The notes under the pieces were generated by a model that saw nothing but the letters and a program-made list of their open reading frames with translations, made no database searches and was not told the origin of the DNA. From the NCBI GenBank assembly GCA_041653835.1, contig JBAZEP010000002.1:19061-83060 (forward strand): a stretch of 64,000 nt of DNA, in the 5' to 3' direction. The translations under genes were made by a program, and so were the position numbers. Positions within the stretch are counted from its first letter, which is position 1. Each line of letters opens with the position of its first letter. This stretch comes from Candidatus Omnitrophota bacterium. GTDB lineage: Bacteria > Omnitrophota > Gorgyraeia > Gorgyraeales > Gorgyraeaceae. Positions 4,368 to 63,869 of this stretch are shown in pieces.

Positions 4368-6158
4368 TTAAAGCCCCCTTTTTATAAGTTGATTAAACTC
4401 TTCCAGAAGCCGTTTTTCTTCTTCTTCATAACCGCTTTTCTGAGCCGTATGAAGCCTTGATTGTATGTCCTTGAGAAGATCATTTCTGTTCTCTCTTTTT
4501 ATGGTCATTATACAGTCACAGACATTTTTTTCCTTATCTCTTATATCGACCTCTTCGTTCACTATAAAAGATATGATATTCTGCGGGACTTTGTCTTCGA
4601 TAGAATTTATCAATTTGCCCACGTCTATAAAACCATCTTCGATATTTTCGATATTTATGGAAAAGAGCGCCTCGGCTATAGCCCTGACGTCGCTATTCTT
4701 GAAATCCGAAGGTTTAAGTTCGTTCTTTACCATTTTTATGACTTCCAGGTCCTCCAGCATCAACCTTGCCAGTATTTTTTCCGCGGGAGAGATCTCTATA
4801 TTCTTCATTGCCGCCCGCCTCTTGTCCTCCGTATCCTGTCTCCTGCTGCCTGCCGGCTGTCTCCTGTCCCTTATTTTTTTAAGCTCCTCCCATATCGCAT
4901 CTTCTTTCACAAAAAGTTCCTGTGCCAGGAGTTTTATGTATTCCGCTTTTACTATAGCGTTCCTTACCCTGTTTATCGTGGAAAGCATTTCTTTTATGGT
5001 CTCCGCTTTCGCTTCCGGTTCCGTGCTGTTAAACCTGTTTTTCAATATATCCAGCTTGTACGTAAAAAGGCTTTTTGATTTTCTTACGGCCTCGTCGAAT
5101 TTCTCTTTTCCGAATTTCCTCAGGAAGCTGTCGGGGTCATGGCCCTTTTCCAGTGTAGCTATCTTTACGTTCATCTCTTCTTCCAGGAACAGGTCAAGCC
5201 CCCTCAATGAAGCCGCTTCCCCTGCCTGGTCGGCATCATATAGTATGACCACATTATGGGTATATCTTTTCAAAAGCCTTATCTGCTCTGTGGTAAGCGC
5301 GGTGCCGAGAGAAGCTATGGCGTTAGTAACGCCGTACTGATGGCACATCATCACATCCAGGTAGCCTTCCGTTATTATCGCGTAATTCCTTTCTTTTATG
5401 TCGGCCTTCGCGAGATTAAGGCCGTATAGGTGCAGGCCTTTTTTATAGACGGTCGTTTCCGGGGAGTTTATGTATTTAGGCAATGAATCATCCGTCACCC
5501 TGGCGCCAAAACCTAGGACCCTGTTCCTCACATCGAATATGGGAAATACCACCCTGTTCCTGAAAAGGTCATAATAGGAATTATCTTTTCCTTTGAAAAT
5601 CAGACCCGCCTTGCCGATGGTGTCCTGTTTTATGCCTCTCGCGGACAAATAATCCATCAGCCCCTTCCATGAGGAATCCGCCCAACCTAACCTGAATTTC
5701 TTTATGACAGCCGCGTTCAATCCTCTTTTATTTATATACCCCCTGGGTTCGGAGGATTGGGCGGCCTTTTCCAGGAACCCCGAATAATAGTTCGCCGCTA
5801 TGTCGTTTATCGAATATACGATACTTACGATAGATTCGTCATGTTCCTCATTGCCTCTTTTGTATTCCGGCAGTTTTACCCCTGTCTTTTCCGCCAGCAT
5901 CTTTACCGCGTCTATAAAATCTATCTTTTCGTATTCCTTTAAAAAATTAAAAACATTGCCGCCGGAGTTGCACCCGAAGCAATGATATATCTGCTTGTCC
6001 GGGCTGACCACAAAAGAAGGTGTTTTCTCGTGATGAAAAGGACAGCAGGCCTTGAAATTCCTACCGCTGGGCTTCAACGAGACATAACCCGAGATTATCT
6101 CGACTATGTCGCATTTGTCCTGTATCTCGTTTAGTATGTTTTCGGGTATCTTGCCCAT
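4368..6158 (-). CDS. dnaG: DNA primase DnaG
   Basis: Zinc-finger motif [18 protein letters not shown] region (EGYLDV, DADQAG); classic dnaG-rpoD order. Confidence 0.92.
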
Positions 6159-7118
6159 TTATTTCTTTCTTGAAAATCTCCTGAATCCGGAACAGGTTAA
6201 TATTTTAAACTTCCCCTTTTTCTCAAGCGCGTCCAGCACGATATTGACGCCGAGGTTATCGCTCGCTATATGGCCCGCTATCACCACGTTCATATGTTCT
6301 TCCTGCGCCTTCTTAAAATGCTCCTCGCTGAGATGCATGCATACAAGCGTAGATATCCCCGCCTCCGAAAGTTTCTTAAAGATATCCTTGGAACCCTCGG
6401 TACCGCCTGTCATATCCACAAAGATCTTTCCGGGCTTGCTGGAGGCATAGCCTCTCGTGATTTTCGGGCCCGCATTCTCTCTGGCCGCGGCGTTATATTC
6501 AGGTATTTCCCTTAACATATCCACGATATCTCCCAGCGTGCTTGGTTTCTTCTTATCCATCATGCCCTGTAAATAAGTAACTACGCAATTATCGGCGGGC
6601 GTATGGCAATTCATAAAATTGATATTAAGAAGCTTTGCCGCGTCGATCGCGCGTGTGTGGTTCGCCGGCATGACCCTTCTCTCTACCTCCCTGATCCTGT
6701 CATGCATAAGAGATTCCGCGACATTTATTGGAACTCCGAATTTATTTAGTATATCCACCTGCATATACATTACGTTAAAAAGCCCTGCCAGGGCGAGCCC
6801 CTCCGGATGATGAGCCATGACCAGGTCTATTTTTTCGCCTTTTTCTATCAGCCTGTCCGCCAGGACTATTTCGCCCACCTCTATATCTATGCCTACCAGG
6901 ATCGTTTTTATTTCACTGTCTTCTTTGCCGTTAAATATCCTTGTGTCGCTGTAAGGATTATCAAGCCTTGCCTTGTCATAGAATTCTTTATCCTTTGCGC
7001 TCAATTTTTCATATTCGCTTTTCGCCCTTAAAAGCTCTTTCTTCACGCTGTCCTTACCTCTAGGGTCGTTTTCCATGCCAAAAAGCACTACGCTCCTATA
7101 GATGTCTATAAGCTTCAC
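6159..7118 (-). CDS. Nif3-like dinuclear metal-centre protein (DUF34/YqfO family)
   Basis: LVMAHHPEG and IAGHIASD motifs resemble the Nif3 HH and AGHYxSE motifs; located upstream of dnaG as in the Firmicute macromolecular-synthesis operon. Confidence 0.55.
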   Translation of the reverse strand: MKLIDIYRSVVLFGMENDPRGKDSVKKELLRAKSEYEKLSAKDKEFYDKARLDNPYSDTRIFNGKEDSEIKTILVGIDIEVGEIVLADRLIEKGEKIDLVMAHHPEGLALAGLFNVMYMQVDILNKFGVPINVAESLMHDRIREVERRVMPANHTRAIDAAKLLNINFMNCHTPADNCVVTYLQGMMDKKKPSTLGDIVDMLREIPEYNAAARENAGPKITRGYASSKPGKIFVDMTGGTEGSKDIFKKLSEAGISTLVCMHLSEEHFKKAQEEHMNVVIAGHIASDNLGVNIVLDALEKKGKFKILTCSGFRRFSRKK

Positions 7119-7735: not shown

Positions 7736-7769
7736 CCCCGCCTCCCTGCTTTTTTATAGCCTTAATATA

Positions 7770-7963
7770 CCTCCGGCAGGCTATGGCCGTTCGGCACAGA
7801 GAGTGTTTCGCCGTGCGCTACGGTTTACGGCTCGTTTTTTATACTGAAGGTAGTCTTGACAGTATAAAAAACTTCGCCGTAATCCCTTGCGCACTTATAT
7901 TCAAAAGAACTTGTCCTATGCCGAAACCTCTCAAATGTGCCTCAGGCCCTAGCCTGCCGGAGG
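7770..7963. repeat. Long-hairpin structured element, copy A (inverted relative to copy B at 27718-27903)
   Basis: Outer 19 bp inverted repeat cctccggcaggctatggcc/ggccctagcctgccggagg; about 120 bp core about 90% identical to rc of 27770-27890; core is itself an imperfect hairpin with loop tcaagactRccttc. Confidence 0.7.
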
Positions 7964-8060
7964 CGTAAAAAAGCCTTTACATATATCTCTAAGTTTACAT
8001 TTATGATATTGTCTTAAATGTGGACTTGGACTGCGTATCTTACATTGCAAGTATTACAAC

Positions 8061-11971: not shown

Positions 11972-12084
11972 CCCGAGCGACTGTTGTCTTCTGTATCTTG
12001 TCGCGAGGGATAAATTCTTTACTGTCCCTCGTCCGCCAAAATTCTATAGCGGACTCGGGACGAATTTTGCCAAAGGCAAAATTC

Positions 12085-12159
12085 GGTGGACCTGAGCGGG
12101 ATCGAACCGCTGACCTCTTCGTTGCGAACGAAGCGCTCTCCCAGCTGAGCTACAGGCCC
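12085..12159 (-). tRNA. tRNA-Ala (anticodon CGC)
   Basis: rc: GGGCCTGTAGCTCAGCTGGGAGAGCGCTTCGTTCGCAACGAAGAGGTCAGCGGTTCGATCCCGCTCAGGTCCACC; cloverleaf with G3:U70, TTCGATC T-loop, anticodon loop TTCGCAA. Confidence 0.9.
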
Positions 12160-22282: not shown

Positions 22283-22435
22283 GGAAGGGTAAAGAGGCTG
22301 TAAGTTGTTAATTAATATAACTATTTTAAAATAAATAACTTATATAAAAAAATAATATGATGAAAAAATAAAGGAAAAATACATAAAATTTCATATATTT
22401 TTCCTTAACTTATTTAAATATAAATAGTTATATAA

Positions 22436-25014: not shown

Positions 25015-27465
25015 TTATCTATTCTCTTCTATTTTCCTGAGCCTTTCCTTCGCGAGCGCCGACTCTTTTACGTCCATCTCGGATATCTTTCTATACATTT
25101 TTCCAGCCTCTTCCATTTTACCCTGCTTTTCCATCAATTCGGCGCACAGGAGAAAAGCGTTCGCGACTATCTCGGTGGAATCCGGATATATGTACCCGAC
25201 TTTCATATATTCCGCGATAGCGTTATCTACATCCCCGGATTCTTCATAAAGCCGGCCTATGGTAAGCTGGATACCGGCGTTAAAATCCCCCCGCCTGTCA
25301 TCCAGGGAATTTTTATAATACCCAATAGCTTCCTGGATGTTGCCTTCTTTTTTCATGATATCCCCGAGATATTTGAAAGCCACTTTTACAAAATCAGTAT
25401 CCTTGTAGTCCTCCAAGAATTTTAAAAGCCTGGCTTTAGCTTCGCCATAATCTTTCTTTTTCATTAAAATATCCGCGATCTTAAGCTCTGCCGCGGGAAT
25501 AAGATCGCTGCCGCTATAAACCATTTTAAGGTTTTCGAGATAGGCCGCGCTTTTATCCAGTTCGCCTTTTTCATAAAAAATTATCGCGGTCCTGTAGACC
25601 GCGTCATCGCTGAGAGAATCTTCCGGGGACTCCTTGACCAGATTATCGAAATACTTTTCCGCTTTGTCAAAATCCTTTCTGTTAGCATAATACTCGCCCA
25701 GCCAGAACTTTACTTCTCCTGTCAATTCATCCTGGGGATACCGGGTTATATAGTCTTCGAATTGGTTAAGGGCTTTCTTATTATCCCCCATCCTGTAATA
25801 GCACCATCCTATTTCATATAACGCGCGTTTGGCAAGCTGGGTGCCGGACCTGTTTGACGCTATGCCCTGGAACACCTCTATCGCCTGTTTATATTCGGAG
25901 ATGTTATAAAAAGCCCCTGCCATCTGGAACTCGGCGTCATCCCTGTATTTTGTATTCTTGAACTTTTCAAGGAATGCCCTGAATTCACGGGCGGCGTCCT
26001 GAAAAGAGCCTTTCTTGAAATATGACGCCGCTACGCCGTAAGACGCGTCTTCGGCGTACCTGGAAGAGGGGTAATTTTTCAACAAACTGCCGAAAGCCAG
26101 TATCGCGCCTTCGTAACGTTCTGATTTGAATTGTATCCTGCCTATCTGGTATTGGGCATAATCCACATAACCGAATACGGCGTCGGGATTGACACTGGCC
26201 TCTTTTAAAACCATGTCATAAGCTTCCGACGCTTTTTCCAGCTGATTCAGCTGGAAATACGCGTCCCCCAGCCTGCAATACGAGCTTATCCTGTAAATAT
26301 CATCATTTGTTGTCTTGATGACCCTGCTGAACTCCTCTATCGCGTCATTATACCTGCCTGTTTTAAAATACAGCCAGCCGAGATTATACCTCATATCATC
26401 GGCATAGCCGGCGGGAGGGAATTTGTTTATTCCGTCTTTCAGCACCTCTATGCCGTCCTCGTATAAACCAAGATTATAAAGCGCTTCGGATTTGCCGAGA
26501 TATGCTTTCATTATTAAGGCGCTTTTGGGAAATTTTTCTATAATCTCGCTGAAACATTTTAAAGCGTCGTCAAATTTTTTCATTTTCATAAACGCCTGGG
26601 CCTTGCCTTCGAGCGCGGAATCCATGACATCGTAACTCTTTTTGAAATTCCCCAGACGGTCGAATTCCCTGGCAGCGTCCTCATACCGCTCTAATTTCAT
26701 ATAGCTCCACGCCATGTCGTATATAGCGTAAAAATCTATGTCATCCTCCGGAGCGATCTCGAGCGCTTTCTTGAACGCCTCCAGCGCGGCCTTGTAGTCA
26801 TTCTGGTAATAATGGTTTTCACCGGTATAAAAATAAGCGAGTTTGGCTTTTTTTATGTCTTTGGTCCTGGCGATGAGCCCCGCTAATCTTTCCCTGGATT
26901 CGTCGTATTTCTTAAGCCGGTAGAGTGTCTCCCCTATCTTCAATTCGGCATCTTCTTTTAATTCGTTCGCGGGATATTCGGATATAAAGGCTGAAAATTT
27001 ATTGATAGAATCCTGGTATTTTTTTTCTTCGTAGAGCGACCGCGCGTACGCGTATTTAACGTAAGGCGTGTAATTCGATTTTGGAAATTCCGCGAGAATG
27101 GAATCGTATATCTCCCTGGCCTTCTCGAAATCCCCGGTCCTGGAATATATCTCCGATTTCCAGTACATCGCCTCGTCCTTGGGCCCTGTCCACCCGGCGG
27201 AGTTTATCACGGCGTCCAGTTCTTTCATCGCGTCGGTGAACCTGTTAAGATACACATAGGACTCTCCCAGCAAAAGCCGCGCGTTATAAACATCCGTGTC
27301 AAAGGGATTTTCGGATAAAAATTTTTCGAACGCCTTGGCGGCTATTTCATAAAATCCGTCCTGGAAGGATTTCTTAGCCAGGCTGAGATCGGAATTTTCC
27401 CCGTATCCGGCCCCTGCCATCAATATGACAGCTATAATAATAAATATATATTTAATACATCTCAT
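25015..27465 (-). CDS. Large TPR-repeat protein with signal peptide; start at MRCIKYIF (27465), not the longer ORF
   Basis: Many TPR repeats; the ORF extension to 27618 runs through a palindromic noncoding element and lacks an RBS. Confidence 0.7.
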   Translation of the reverse strand: MRCIKYIFIIIAVILMAGAGYGENSDLSLAKKSFQDGFYEIAAKAFEKFLSENPFDTDVYNARLLLGESYVYLNRFTDAMKELDAVINSAGWTGPKDEAMYWKSEIYSRTGDFEKAREIYDSILAEFPKSNYTPYVKYAYARSLYEEKKYQDSINKFSAFISEYPANELKEDAELKIGETLYRLKKYDESRERLAGLIARTKDIKKAKLAYFYTGENHYYQNDYKAALEAFKKALEIAPEDDIDFYAIYDMAWSYMKLERYEDAAREFDRLGNFKKSYDVMDSALEGKAQAFMKMKKFDDALKCFSEIIEKFPKSALIMKAYLGKSEALYNLGLYEDGIEVLKDGINKFPPAGYADDMRYNLGWLYFKTGRYNDAIEEFSRVIKTTNDDIYRISSYCRLGDAYFQLNQLEKASEAYDMVLKEASVNPDAVFGYVDYAQYQIGRIQFKSERYEGAILAFGSLLKNYPSSRYAEDASYGVAASYFKKGSFQDAAREFRAFLEKFKNTKYRDDAEFQMAGAFYNISEYKQAIEVFQGIASNRSGTQLAKRALYEIGWCYYRMGDNKKALNQFEDYITRYPQDELTGEVKFWLGEYYANRKDFDKAEKYFDNLVKESPEDSLSDDAVYRTAIIFYEKGELDKSAAYLENLKMVYSGSDLIPAAELKIADILMKKKDYGEAKARLLKFLEDYKDTDFVKVAFKYLGDIMKKEGNIQEAIGYYKNSLDDRRGDFNAGIQLTIGRLYEESGDVDNAIAEYMKVGYIYPDSTEIVANAFLLCAELMEKQGKMEEAGKMYRKISEMDVKESALAKERLRKIEENR

Positions 27466-27528
27466 CTTGATTATAAATATAGCATTGAGCGGCTTAATGT
27501 TCAAGAGAAAAGTGAAAATATACAAATT

Positions 27529-27687
27529 CTCTTTTCCGGCTGGCAGGCTTTCGAAAAGACGCTTGACCGCCCCAGCGTGGCGGTCTACGCTCAGTGTTTC
27601 TTCTCGCTCGTCCGCCACAAAACGATGGCGGACACCATGCCCGCTCGAAGAAACAATGCTTTTCTCAAACCTGCCAGCCGGAAATAG
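27529..27687. repeat. Long palindromic structured element C (nested inverted repeats)
   Basis: Outer about 26 bp inverted repeat (ttttccggctggcaggctttcgaaaag / cttttctcaaacctgccagccggaaa), inner inverted repeat gtttcttctcgctcg/cgctcgaagaaac, two GC hairpins gaccgcc..ggcggtc and tccgcc..ggcgga. Confidence 0.6.
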
Positions 27688-27717
27688 CTACAGCTTTACA
27701 GTATATTATATGTCTCT

Positions 27718-27903
27718 GAGCCAGGTTGGGACATAAGGCACATTAGAAAAATTTCGGCATAATTTATTTTTTATTCTGCTAAGTGCGCAAGGAATTACGG
27801 CGAAGTTTTTATACCGTCAAGACTGCCTTCGGTATAAAAAATGAGCCGTAAACCGTAGCGCACGGCGAAATTATTTCAGTGCCGAATGGCCCCAACCTGG
27901 CTC
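27718..27903. repeat. Long-hairpin structured element, copy B (inverted relative to copy A)
   Basis: Outer inverted repeat gagccaggttggg/cccaacctggctc; core matches rc of 7800-7910 at about 90% with a compensatory C-G vs T-A stem change. Confidence 0.7.
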
Positions 27904-27920
27904 AATTAGAAACATATACA

Positions 27921-30707
27921 TTAAAGATATTCTTTTAGATATTGTCCAGTAGACGATGACGGGATTTTTACTATCTCTTCGGGCGTGCCTGAGGCTGTTA
28001 TTTTTCCGCCTTCATCTCCGCCTCCCGGCCCCAGGTCTATTATATAGTCCGCGGACTTGATAACATCCAGGTTATGCTCTATTATCAAAACGCTGTTTCC
28101 CCCCTCCACAAGCGCGTGCAATACTCTGAGGAGTCTGTCTATGTCGGCGAAGTGCAGACCTGTGGTAGGCTCATCCAGTATATACAGGGTTTTGCCGGTG
28201 CCTATCTTGCTTAGTTCAGAGGCAAGTTTTACCCTTTGCGCTTCGCCTCCGGAAAGAGTGGTAGCGGATTGCCCGAGCTCCACATACCCGAGGCCTACAT
28301 CGTAAAGCGTCTTTAATTTCTGATATATCTGCGGGATATTCTTAAAAAGCTCCATTCCGTCTTCCACGGTCATTTCCAGCACATCCGCTATAGATTTTCC
28401 TTTATAGAGGACCTGCAGGGTCTCGTGGTTATACCGTTTCCCGGCGCATACCTCGCACGCCACAAAGACATCCGGCAGGAAATGCATTTCTATCTGTTTT
28501 ATCCCGTCTCCCTGGCATGCCTCGCACCTGCCTCCTTTTACGTTGAAGCTGAAACGCCCGGGCTTATACCCTCTCATCCTGGACTCGGGGAGCCTCGCGA
28601 ATATGTCCCTGATAAAAGAAAATACCCCGGTGTACGTAACCGGATTTGAACGCGGTGTCCTGCCTATAGGCGATTGGTCAACGACTATAACTTTATCTAT
28701 CTGCTCCGCGCCTTCAATAGCATCGTGGCTTCCGGGTTTTTCTTTTGACCCGTAAAGTTTTTTCGCGAGCGCATTGTACAGGATATCATCAACCATCGTG
28801 CTTTTGCCGGAACCGGACACCCCTGTAATGCACACAAAAAGCCCGAGAGGTATCGCGATATCTATATTTTTAAGGTTATGCTCCCTGGCATTTCTTATGA
28901 CAATAGATCTGCTTTTTACGGCTTTCCGTCTTTTCTTTGGGATACTTATCTTTAAATCCTTTCTCAGATAACTGCCGGTAAGAGATTCTTTGGAGCCGAT
29001 AATATCCTCTATCTTTCCTTTGGCGACTATGTACCCGCCGTGCTTTCCGGCCCCGGGGCCAAGGTCAACTATATAATCCGCGCTCCTTATCGTAGCCTCG
29101 TCATGCTCGACAACCACCAGTGTATTGCCGAGATCTCTCAATGCCTTAAGGGTATCAAGAAGCTTGGCATTATCTTTCTGGTGAAGCCCTATGCTCGGTT
29201 CATCCAGGACATAAAGCACGCCTGTAAGCCCCGCGCCTATCTGCGTCGCCAGCCTTATCCTCTGCGCCTCTCCGCCCGACAGGGTCGAACTGACCCTGTC
29301 CAGCGTAAGATAATCGAGGCCTACATTAGCCATAAATCCTAACCGTTCTTTTATTTCTTTCAATATCTGATGCGCTATCTTCTCCTGCGTATCCGTAAGT
29401 TTTATGCCGGAAAAAAACCTAGCGGCATCCCTGACCGAAAAACTTGAAACATCGCTTATAGATATATCGTTTATCTTTATAGAGAGCGCCTCTGGTCTCA
29501 GCCTTTTCCCTTTGCACTCAGGGCATACGGAAATAGTCGTGTATTTATTTATCTCCGCCCTCATGAATTCACTGTCCGTGTCTTTCAGCCTCCTTAATAA
29601 ATTAGGCACAACACCCTCGAAATGAACCCCTTGCTCTTTTCTGCTCGAACCAAAAAGTATGACATCCCTTATCTTTTTTGGGATATTATTAAAAGGCGTA
29701 TCTATATCAAATCCGTATTCCTGGCCCAGTTTTCTCAAAAGCCTTCTGTAATGAAGTATTATCCTCATGCCTCCGACGCGCCACGGCCTTATGGCTTCCC
29801 TTAAAGATTTTGTTTTATCCGGGATGACGGCGTCGGGATCTATATCCATTATCGTGCCTAATCCCGCACACGCCTGGCACGCCCCGTACGGACTGTTGAA
29901 GGAGAACATCCTTGGCTCTATCTCTTCATAACTTACCCCGCATTCCGGGCAGGAATATAATTCGCTGAAAAGCTCGTCTTCTTTGGTATCGAGCATGGAA
30001 GCAAGCATCAGGCCTTTTCCGGCTTTCAGCGCCGTCTCGACAGAATCAGCCAGCCTTTCCCTGACGCCTTTCTCGATCACCACCCTGTCCACCACGACCT
30101 CTATATTGTGGTTTTTGTATTTATCCAATTTTATCTTCTCGTCCAATGAGATTATGGCTCCGTCCAGCCTTATCCTCGCGAAACCCTGTTTTTTCAGCTC
30201 GCTGAACAGGCTGAGATATTCGCCCTTTCTGCCCCTTACCACAGGCGCGAGTATTAATATGGACGAACCCGCGGGATACCTCAAGAGCCTGTCTATTATC
30301 TCATCCTGGCTCTGTCGTTTTATTTCCCGTCCGCATTTATAACAATAAGGTTTTCCGGCGCGGGCAAAAAGGAGCCTCAGGTAATCATATATCTCCGTGG
30401 TTGTCCCGACCGTGGAACGGGGGTTGCCTCCGGCCTTCCTCTGCTCAATAGAGATAGCCGGGGATAAACCTTCTATGTGTTCCACGTTGGGCTTTTCGAG
30501 CTGTTCCAGGAACTGCCTCGCGTAAGCGGACAAACTCTCGACATACCTGCGCTGGCCCTCGGCGTATATCGTATCAAAGGCAAGCGAAGATTTTCCCGAT
30601 CCGCTCAAGCCGGTAATTACCACCAGCTTATTCCTCGGTATCTCAAGATTTATATTCTTGAGATTATGTTCCTTTGCCCCGAATATCTTAATAAACCCTT
30701 CTTCCAT
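27921..30707 (-). CDS. uvrA: Excinuclease ABC subunit A
   Basis: 928 aa, two ABC ATPase modules ([23 protein letters not shown]), zinc fingers. Confidence 0.93.
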
Positions 30708-37632: not shown

Positions 37633-37670
37633 TAAGGTAAGATTTCTGACAGTGTCAAAAATCTTACCTA
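37633..37670. repeat. REP-like intercistronic palindrome (taaggtaagatttcTGACAgTGTCAaaaatcttaccta)
   Basis: 17/18 bp inverted arms around TGACA-g-TGTCA; fills the dapL-stop/folK-start gap. Confidence 0.65.
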
Positions 37671-39591: not shown

Positions 39592-39630
39592 TAAGGGAAC
39601 ATTTTTGACAATGTCATAAATGTTCCCTTA
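39592..39630. repeat. REP-like intercistronic palindrome (taagggaacattttTGACAaTGTCAtaaatgttccctta)
   Basis: 18/19 bp inverted arms; runs from the dapA stop to 12 nt before the dapB start. Confidence 0.65.
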
Positions 39631-55780: not shown

Positions 55781-55819
55781 CTAATGTTACATTTTGACAC
55801 TGTCAGAGTGTAACATTAG
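55781..55819. repeat. REP-like intercistronic palindrome (ctaatgttacatttTGACAcTGTCAgagtgtaacattag)
   Basis: Inverted arms around TGACA-c-TGTCA between the leuB stop and the asd start. Confidence 0.6.
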
Positions 55820-63829: not shown

Positions 63830-63869
63830 TAAGGGAACATTTGTGACAGTGTCACAAATGTTCCCTTAG
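63830..63869. repeat. REP-like intercistronic palindrome (taagggaacatttgTGACAgTGTCAcaaatgttcccttag)
   Basis: 19 bp perfect inverted arms; overlaps the SBP stop codon and ends 19 nt before the oppB-like start. Confidence 0.7.

Follow-up and report, generated by a model that had tools for sequence, protein, structure and literature searches.

Our analysis of element C, a 152-base inverted-repeat structure at positions 27533-27684 of the window (the 64,000-nucleotide stretch of the Candidatus Omnitrophota contig JBAZEP010000002.1 studied here), indicates that it belongs to a family of structured repeats that is missing from the RNA family catalogue Rfam and that is found across Candidatus Omnitrophota, with copies also in two genome bins bearing the label Patescibacteria or Saccharibacteria. 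The reading we favour, with a probability of roughly 60%, is that C was inserted here as one copy of a structured, strand-specific and interspersed repeat, which spreads among intergenic sites and decays. The element lies inside a stretch (27529-27687) between uvrA and a TPR protein gene that a first-pass annotation had described as a long nested palindrome.

That palindrome is real. The outer inverted repeat (27533-27558 / 27659-27684, 26 nt, 88% complementary, arms 100 nt apart), the inner inverted repeat and both GC hairpins were all located. On the minus strand the element folds at -89.4 kcal/mol, against -56.9 ± 4.2 kcal/mol for 200 dinucleotide shuffles, none of which is as good (z -7.8), and on the plus strand it folds at -74.6 kcal/mol (z -8.0), both strands, whose folding had been proposed as a check, lying far below shuffled sequence at z about -8. 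The minus-strand fold is a three-way junction rather than a simple nest of palindromes: a closing helix, P1, extends 25/24 nt past a core made of a P2/P2a arm and a P3 arm. The parts are as follows.

27533 to 27684, minus-strand sense: element C in full, a member of the repeat family with the three-way junction, as judged from the outer inverted repeat, the fold z and the covariance match
27659 to 27684, minus strand: 5' strand of P1, UUUCCGGCUGGCAGGUUUGAGAAAAG, in which UGAG (27664-27667) is one side of a tandem G.A internal loop
27533 to 27558, minus strand: 3' strand of P1, CUUUUCGAAAGCCUGCCAGCCGGAAA, in which CGAA (27550-27553) is the other side of this tandem G.A loop
27558 to 27658, minus strand: conserved core (P2, boxes, P2a, P3), covered at full length by positions 1-100 of covariance model R1
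27647 to 27658, minus strand: 5' strand of P2, a variable, covarying helix formed by the 12-nt inner inverted repeat
27634 to 27646, minus strand: box 1, GAGC (27643-27646), and a 9-nt purine-rich bulge, GGGCAUGGU (27634-27642), invariant in 27 aligned copies, in part because the search pattern selected for them
27610 to 27633, minus strand: P2a hairpin, GUCCGCC-loop-GGCGGAC with a 10-nt loop, whose tip is a variable slot that holds whole elements in nested copies
27604 to 27609, minus strand: box 2, GAGCGA, outside the search pattern
27592 to 27603, minus strand: 3' strand of P2, partner arm of the inner 12-nt repeat
27586 to 27594, minus strand: junction strand with box 3 (cuGAGCGua), 5' of P3
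27565 to 27585, minus strand: P3 hairpin, GACCGCC-ACGCUGG-GGCGGUC, with the conserved loop CnCGCUGGG, whose bases are invariant though outside the search pattern
27559 to 27564, minus strand: box 4, AAGCGU, 3' of P3, which pairs with box 3 in the predicted fold

Model R1 scores C at 106.7-106.8 bits (E about 2e-21), the top of 50 hits, a match that is partly by construction because C was in the seed alignment. C has all the parts by which we define the family, namely the full-length core (P2, box 1, the bulge, P2a, box 2 and the P3 loop) and a long P1 with UGAG/CGAA. Within the window C matches only itself, both blastn and the covariance model finding no second copy.

The other members came to light through the core. 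Twenty-three bases, CGAGCGGGCATGGTGTCCGCCAT, are identical between C and the C-type hairpin of a related genome (L090), and a scan of a metagenome collection with 20 of these bases gave 36 loci. Box 2 follows shortly downstream, as GGCGGAC-GAGCGA, in 30 of the 36, and a second hairpin with the P3 loop CnCGCUGGG in 28 of them; both are absent from the search pattern. The invariant core of the family reads GAGCGGGCAUGGUGUCCGCC ... GGCGGACGAGCGA ... CnCGCUGGG.

The contigs that carry these copies differ widely in composition, the GC content of the matched core ranging from 0.54 to 0.78. One neighbouring protein is named Candidatus Omnitrophota and another Patescibacteria; the best named relatives of a PyrG protein beside a high-GC copy are from Candidatus Omnitrophica; and an independent member, L050, which R1 scores at 53 bits, comes from a genome bin labelled Saccharibacteria. 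As a control, R1 was run on 757 kb of uvrA loci from other genomes, where L050 is its single match. A two-part family pattern found no member in 2.9 million viral contigs; 18-mer matches in the viral collection turned out to be GGGG...CCCC terminator hairpins. Comparison with Rfam 15 (4227 families, known self-cleaving classes included) gave only one tRNA for the window at gathering thresholds, only chance-level matches of 17 bits or less for 27440-27940 at E ≤ 10, and no match on the element in eleven further member loci. A literature search with the sequence of the core brought up no description of an element of this kind, and keyword searches (Omnitrophota, structured RNAs, new ribozymes) returned nothing relevant.

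The fold is supported by the way in which the copies differ. In a MAFFT alignment of 27 distinct copies (A3), 83.8% of the cells of the proposed structure are paired, against 63.6% in shuffles, and the covariation score is 0.482, against 0.138 for shuffled alignments (none of 500 reaches the observed value) and 0.08-0.17 when the partners are slid by 1-3 columns. The P3 helix is 95% paired with two-sided changes in six of its seven pairs, and P2 has such changes in all 11. A model-based alignment of 50 hits, which leans towards the model, gives 87% paired and a score of 0.520. The outer stems differ from copy to copy with pairing kept (CCGGCUGG, CCAGCUCUGG, CCAGAGUUGG and high-GC versions), and the interior is the constant part. 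In box 2, positions G50, A51, G52, G54 and A55 (numbered on the first sequence) are invariant or nearly so in the 27 copies. Box 1 GAGC pairs with GCGA of box 2 as two sheared G.A and two G-C pairs, and compensatory variants of this pairing occur: UUCC/GGAA in L104b, GAAC/GAGUGA in L050, where G-C becomes A-U, and a change from G-C to G.U in L105. The UGAG/CGAA tandem G.A loop of P1 is present, as judged by eye and uncounted, in most of the 26 copies with P1 flanks.

These purine-purine loops are confined to one strand, which in the window is the minus strand. As a consequence the sense strand folds more stably than its complement in 28 of 29 copies, by a mean of 11.9 kcal/mol, and in 23 of 26 when P1 is taken alone. 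A small open reading frame through the conserved ATG was considered and rejected because loop lengths vary out of frame.

What surrounds the copies has little in common. Their flanking genes are unrelated housekeeping genes in every orientation, among them ones identified by eye from translations as NifS-, SecY-, PriA-, RNase Y-, PyrG (CTP synthase)-, ThiC-, PurD- and TsaD-like; among the neighbours of the C family only ThiC, YraN and serpin bear names from the source. Among the loci listed we found no link to any one neighbouring protein family. GC skew in the flanks is negative on the sense strand of the element at 18 of 22 loci (L099-L132 and the window; binomial p 0.004), the window copy being one of the four exceptions. 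In our own tally about 15 downstream genes lie on the opposite strand and 8 on the same, so that about two thirds are opposite. If the G-rich strand is taken as the usual coding strand, this skew suggests that the copies are mostly antisense to neighbouring genes.

The family is multi-copy and patchy. A 561-kb contig with an empty uvrA site (L085) bears two composite loci elsewhere, 2 kb apart (L112). C and the inner copy of L112 are about 88% identical, by eye and not computed, and where they differ in P1 and P3 the changes are compensatory; neither the locus nor the species is the same for the two (UvrA identity 87%). Truncated copies occur as well (L090, L102, L089, L130:10566).

Copies are also found inside copies. 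In L112 and L119 a whole copy in the opposite orientation replaces the P2a tip of the outer copy, and L102 has a directly oriented inner copy, while the P2a loop is elsewhere 2 to 16 nt long. The joints are constant, just after ...AUGGUGU and just before ACGAGCGAG. In L087, L089 and L130 the same P2a-tip position inside a C-type element is occupied by a hairpin of a second type, which we call A/B after two elements of the window.

A filled site can be compared with an empty one at L116, where two head-to-head copies lie in a lineage-specific segment of about 400 nt (5763-6165) between pyrG and kdsA. In three relatives whose PyrG is 86-92% identical these two genes overlap or abut and there is no copy. 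The junction flanks the insert twice, to the left as GGCGGCCGCGCGATGAACCT with the pyrG stop and to the right as GGTGGCC...TGATGAATCT with the kdsA start. Target duplication would yield such a double junction, which is required for pyrG and kdsA both to stay intact. Between the two elements lies an inverted copy of the junction, which is the outermost stem of the downstream copy. C and its neighbour B in the window have a similar layout: a direct repeat (27908-27920), an element, an inverted repeat (27707-27717), an element, and a direct repeat (27514-27524). The direct repeat here is a possible one, of 11-12 nt in AT-rich sequence, and because of this composition we hold the layout as unexplained rather than as proof. 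We know of no mechanism that yields the order direct repeat, element, inverted repeat, element, direct repeat seen at L116 and around B and C.

How variable is the site of C itself? The UvrA protein of the window is 65% identical to those of the best species representatives and 84-89% identical to those of many metagenomic relatives, and we compared the uvrA loci of nine of the latter. The order uvrA - TPR - exbB - exbD - tonB is retained in seven of the nine, with a highly variable spacer between uvrA and the TPR gene:

L085: spacer of 115 nt that contains no element, just a small hairpin and a U-rich run
L093: spacer of 83 nt, no element
L091: one A/B-type element
L090: a C-type hairpin with an internal deletion
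L082-L084: a different palindrome and an A/B-type element
L087/L088: an A/B-type element and a degenerate C-type shell enclosing an A/B-type hairpin
L089: an A/B-type hairpin, then the 3' half of a C-type element

Between relatives the flanks have diverged too far for the exact insertion site to be aligned. The different palindrome, at 12790-13090 of L082 and also in L083 and L084, is nested, with outer arms GAAGGCCTGTTCGCTCAGATGAAAATTTA / TAAATTTTCAATTCGCTCGCAGGCCTTC, and is unrelated in sequence to C or to A/B. Two short contigs from the same or related organisms, L001 and L092, end inside an A/B-type hairpin just after uvrA, so that these elements seem to break short-read assemblies.

By sequence, A and B belong to one family and C to a different, much more widespread one. 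The A/B-type element next to C is

27717 to 27904, minus strand: element B, A/B type, of a different family from C and co-oriented with it

Elements A (7759-7974) and B (27717-27904) are homologous over about 190 nt in opposite orientations, the plus strand of A corresponding to the minus strand of B; they share a core of 92 nt at 93% identity, have compensatory changes in the flanking stems and fold as long rods with z -10 to -13. Their relatives occur in either orientation at the uvrA loci of sister genomes and in L130. A blastn search with C against the window matches neither A nor B. The first-pass annotation had taken the outer arm of C to resemble that of A and had suggested related modular elements. 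The outer-arm motif CCGGCTGGCAGGCT, for which it had proposed a search, gives 8 matches with up to 3 mismatches against 4.0 expected, and 5 of 100 shuffles reach 8; the likeness of the arms is within chance, and C is therefore no relative of A/B through its outer arm. The modular part of the suggestion fares better, since A/B-type hairpins do sit inside C-type elements and there is a shared stem: the central A/B stem GUCCGC/GCGGAC is the P2a stem of C, these 6 bp being all that the two have in common. In all four cases of A/B within or next to C, the window included, the A/B unit has the same orientation relative to C sense. A general partnership was considered and rejected, A/B being found only in close relatives of the window and in L130. 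Elsewhere in the window, at 12031-12054, a solo hairpin GTCCGC...GCGGAC followed by GAGGGA lies 30 nt downstream of a minus-strand tRNA gene (12087-12159); its kernel is that of P2a, a pattern that occurs twice in the window against 0.02 expected.

We propose that the unit of selection would be the fold of one strand, here the minus strand, which is also the strand of uvrA and the TPR operon. In this fold a P1 of 25-35 bp, broken by the tandem G.A loop, closes the junction; the P2 arm leads through the GAGC/GCGA box helix and the 9-nt purine bulge to the hairpin GUCCGCC/GGCGGAC; and the P3 arm is capped by the CnCGCUGGG loop. Copies would reach new intergenic sites, often at gene ends and beside or within other hairpin elements, and would then decay. 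The window copy sits in the 3' region of uvrA; in sister genomes this place holds no more than a small hairpin followed by a U-rich run. That C arose by insertion is our inference, and RNA, more likely than single-stranded DNA, would be the form in which it folds.

Several observations weigh against this reading. Chance could account for the duplicated junctions, given their short length and the biased composition around them, high in GC at L116 and AT-rich in the window. None of the copies was found to adjoin a gene for a transposase, a reverse transcriptase or another mobilising function, and the termini of the family lack the sequence conservation of transposase-bound inverted repeats. G.U pairs in P1 number 50 of 794 on the sense strand and 38 of 795 on the other, with no clear enrichment on the sense strand. 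The invariance of the 20 scanned bases holds by construction. Finally, a core of 45 nt is near-invariant across 40-70% GC, a constraint above that of known selfish bacterial repeats, and points to a molecular activity.

A distinctly less probable reading takes up this last point and holds that the family is a class of functional RNA genes, encoding a self-cleaving ribozyme or a protein- or ligand-binding RNA. Every copy would then be active and transcribed on its sense strand, and C would be an expressed small RNA or a processing site rather than a mere passive insert. The invariant core, the conserved purine-rich internal loops, the three helices that covary across very different GC and the strand-specific tandem G.A motifs in all three arms argue for it, and a spread that is interspersed and independent of gene orientation is established for the bacterial hammerhead and twister ribozymes. 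The probable antisense bias would be expected if the sense RNA harmed the host transcript containing it, and the long P1 would permit excision by RNase III. However, none of the 4227 Rfam families matches, the junction has no sequence that reads as a hammerhead core (CUGANGA/GAAA), no conserved promoter precedes the copies, and where sister genomes have lost the copy from a site nothing has taken its place; moreover, genes that are needed are not usually truncated or nested, as many of the copies are.

Particular RNA classes were considered and set aside. For the hammerhead, the junction strands are cnGAGCGna and (A/G)AGCGU, the core strands are absent and no Rfam hammerhead model matches. A likeness to the hepatitis delta virus ribozyme (GGCAUGGU, CUCGCUGG loop) fails on the order of the helices, and that to the UGGN bulge of the T-box on its first position, which varies (U, C or G), and on the missing leader context. 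For 5S rRNA, the Alu domain of the signal recognition particle RNA and the fluoride riboswitch there is no model match. A riboswitch or cis leader does not suit downstream genes that are unrelated and mostly on the opposite strand, nor the window, where the promoter lies past the element.

A more speculative idea, which we hold tentatively and with slightly less conviction still, combines activity with spread: the family could be a new self-processing or self-mobilising RNA, in which the three tandem-G.A arms would form an active site or a platform for docking a protein, the P2a tip would be a cargo slot that takes in entire further elements to give composites of the Russian-doll kind, and the apparent antisense tendency would reflect selection against sense activity in host transcripts.

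Rather unlikely, in our view, is a functional form of single-stranded DNA, seen by a strand-specific enzyme (of the HUH/Y1 kind of IS200/IS605, or of the kind that links repetitive extragenic palindromic (REP) sequences to RAYT) or by a replication-linked process, with spread or growth at the DNA level that could include outward growth of the palindrome by template switching. G.U pairs that are not clearly enriched on the sense strand suit it, as does the established stability of tandem G.A in DNA; the orientation of the copies is biased relative to GC skew; inverted and nested pairs are frequent, as in REP doublets; and inverted copies of the flank form the outermost stem at L116 and around B and C in the window. 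Against this, the sense fold lies on the C-rich strand, opposite to the established habit of elements of the lagging-strand template such as IS608 (assuming that the skew marks the replication strand), and the DNA flanking the copies showed neither a RAYT nor a TnpA gene. Such elements insert without target duplication, whereas L116 has a duplicated junction, and REP units are of 20-40 nt, not 150-240 nt with a three-way junction.

For the locus of the window, what matters is where C stands relative to the operon. According to the first-pass annotation, B and C are stacked structures that form one block separating uvrA from the TPR/exbBD/tonB operon, which is confirmed, the neighbours being UvrA, TPR, ExbB, ExbD and TonB. 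All these genes are on the minus strand, uvrA at 27921-30707 and the TPR gene at 25015-27465, with exbB, exbD and tonB downstream of it. C ends 68 nt upstream of the TPR ATG at 27465, the start common to all orthologues. An open reading frame with a GTG start, 25015..27618, reaches into C; because the ATG at 27465 is backed by the orthologues and by a conserved promoter, this frame is a spurious 5' extension, as had been proposed. The promoter-like site is

27476 to 27504, minus strand: promoter-like site of the TPR operon, TTGAAC-17 nt-TATATT with TG ahead of the second hexamer, downstream of C and outside the element

Eight sequenced spacers extend as far as the TPR gene, and all of them, with or without elements, retain the block CTTGAAyAT...TATATTTATArTCAAGATG. 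Its -10 hexamer ends only about 10 nt ahead of the ATG, in the window and at the same place in L082-L093, so that the TPR mRNA would have almost no leader and could not accommodate a Shine-Dalgarno sequence. Since the conserved promoter sits between C and the ATG, C is neither needed for the operon nor in its leader. A role as regulator of the TPR gene, which its upstream position had implied, falls away with this promoter and with the sister operons that have no elements or other ones (L085, L093, L091, L082). The terminator scan lists no intrinsic terminator at P1, its sole minus-strand candidate being a small alternative core hairpin (27644-27628); a U-rich run begins about 15 nt past P1, and no U-tract directly abuts the stem.

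It is thus very improbable that C is a locus-specific cis structure, be it a leader or attenuator of TPR/exbBD/tonB or a dedicated uvrA terminator: its place between and co-orientation with uvrA and the TPR gene, its very stable hairpin with a U-rich stretch within about 15 nt, and the small hairpin and U-run at the same place in L085 would suit such a role, but the same family adjoins dozens of unrelated genes, orthologous loci lack the element, the promoter between C and the ATG leaves a leader of only about 10 nt, and P1 has neither an abutting U-tract nor a terminator in the scan. For an inserted repeat, which is upstream of and separate from the promoter, the effect would be limited to the 3' structure of uvrA: most likely C gives the uvrA transcript a very stable 3' structure, acting as a hairpin, a possible RNase III target or a substitute terminator.

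How does the family compare with known systems? It behaves like REP elements or miniature inverted-repeat transposable elements (MITEs) and yet is built like a functional RNA, and it lacks defining marks of every known family tested. The REP/BIME/REPIN elements of Proteobacteria are likewise interspersed extragenic palindromes, often at gene ends or between convergent genes and often in inverted doublets, vary in presence among close relatives and can act as 3' stabilisers or terminators. However, they are simple hairpins of 20-40 nt with a GTAG-type tetranucleotide, confined to a genus or family and linked to RAYT, whereas the C family has units of 150-240 nt, a three-way junction, a 45-nt core kept across the phylum and one insertion with a duplicated junction. 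Bacterial MITEs (Correia, ERIC, RUP, Nezha and others) are also non-coding, of 100-300 nt, multi-copy and intergenic, and are bounded by terminal inverted repeats; co-transcription allows them to form long RNA hairpins, and some are nested. Like them the C family is multi-copy and differs in presence between related genomes. However, the termini of MITEs are conserved in sequence, because the transposase binds them, and the interior drifts, whereas in the C family the outer stems vary and the interior loops are invariant; no related transposase lies next to the copies and no parent insertion sequence is known.

Interspersed self-cleaving ribozymes of bacteria (hammerhead, twister, and the RAGATH motifs near them) share with the family small junction folds, invariant unpaired purines, freely covarying stems and an intergenic scatter without a fixed gene partner, and the hammerhead core has a tandem G.A. 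Unlike these, the C family matches none of their sequences or models and has a far longer closing helix. Intervening sequences of 23S rRNA, IS1397 in REP loops and class C group II introns resemble it in being hairpins within hairpins, sporadic and located at terminator-like hairpins, and in the rRNA intervening sequences and hairpin-targeting elements, too, long stems suit excision by RNase III. However, some of these systems occur only within rRNA helices, and the others are elements of 0.7-2 kb that encode protein or are catalytic, whereas the C family has neither coding capacity nor intron domains.

The window holds further palindromes. At 100-480 there is a stack of long ones (z -13.6) with the hairpin CAUCCGCC-UGC-GGCGGAUG at its centre and a perfect 20-nt inverted repeat, 140-159 / 333-352, with arms 173 nt apart. 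A very AT-rich cluster of overlapping long palindromes, including a 40-nt inverted repeat, occupies the spacer downstream of the tonB region (22305-22433). A palindrome of about 39 bp, AAGGGAACATTTnTGACA-n-TGTCAnAAATGTTCCCTT, occurs at least three times (37634-37670, 39593-39629, 63831-63867, and 55781-55819), with 6 half-site matches against 0.00 expected, and looks like a repeated operator or another repeat family.

More generally, the non-coding content of the genomes of Omnitrophota and of the candidate phyla radiation, both uncultured lineages, is almost entirely unexplored. The C family combines the core conservation of a ribozyme or riboswitch with the behaviour of a selfish repeat, and nests within itself at one exact position. 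If the fold is active, through cleavage, protein capture or self-insertion, it would represent a new class of RNA and a new route by which small elements spread. If it is merely a selfish repeat, it would still break short-read assemblies and create false extensions of open reading frames, and it would mark hot spots for insertion at gene ends and serve as a marker for strain-level comparison in these phyla.

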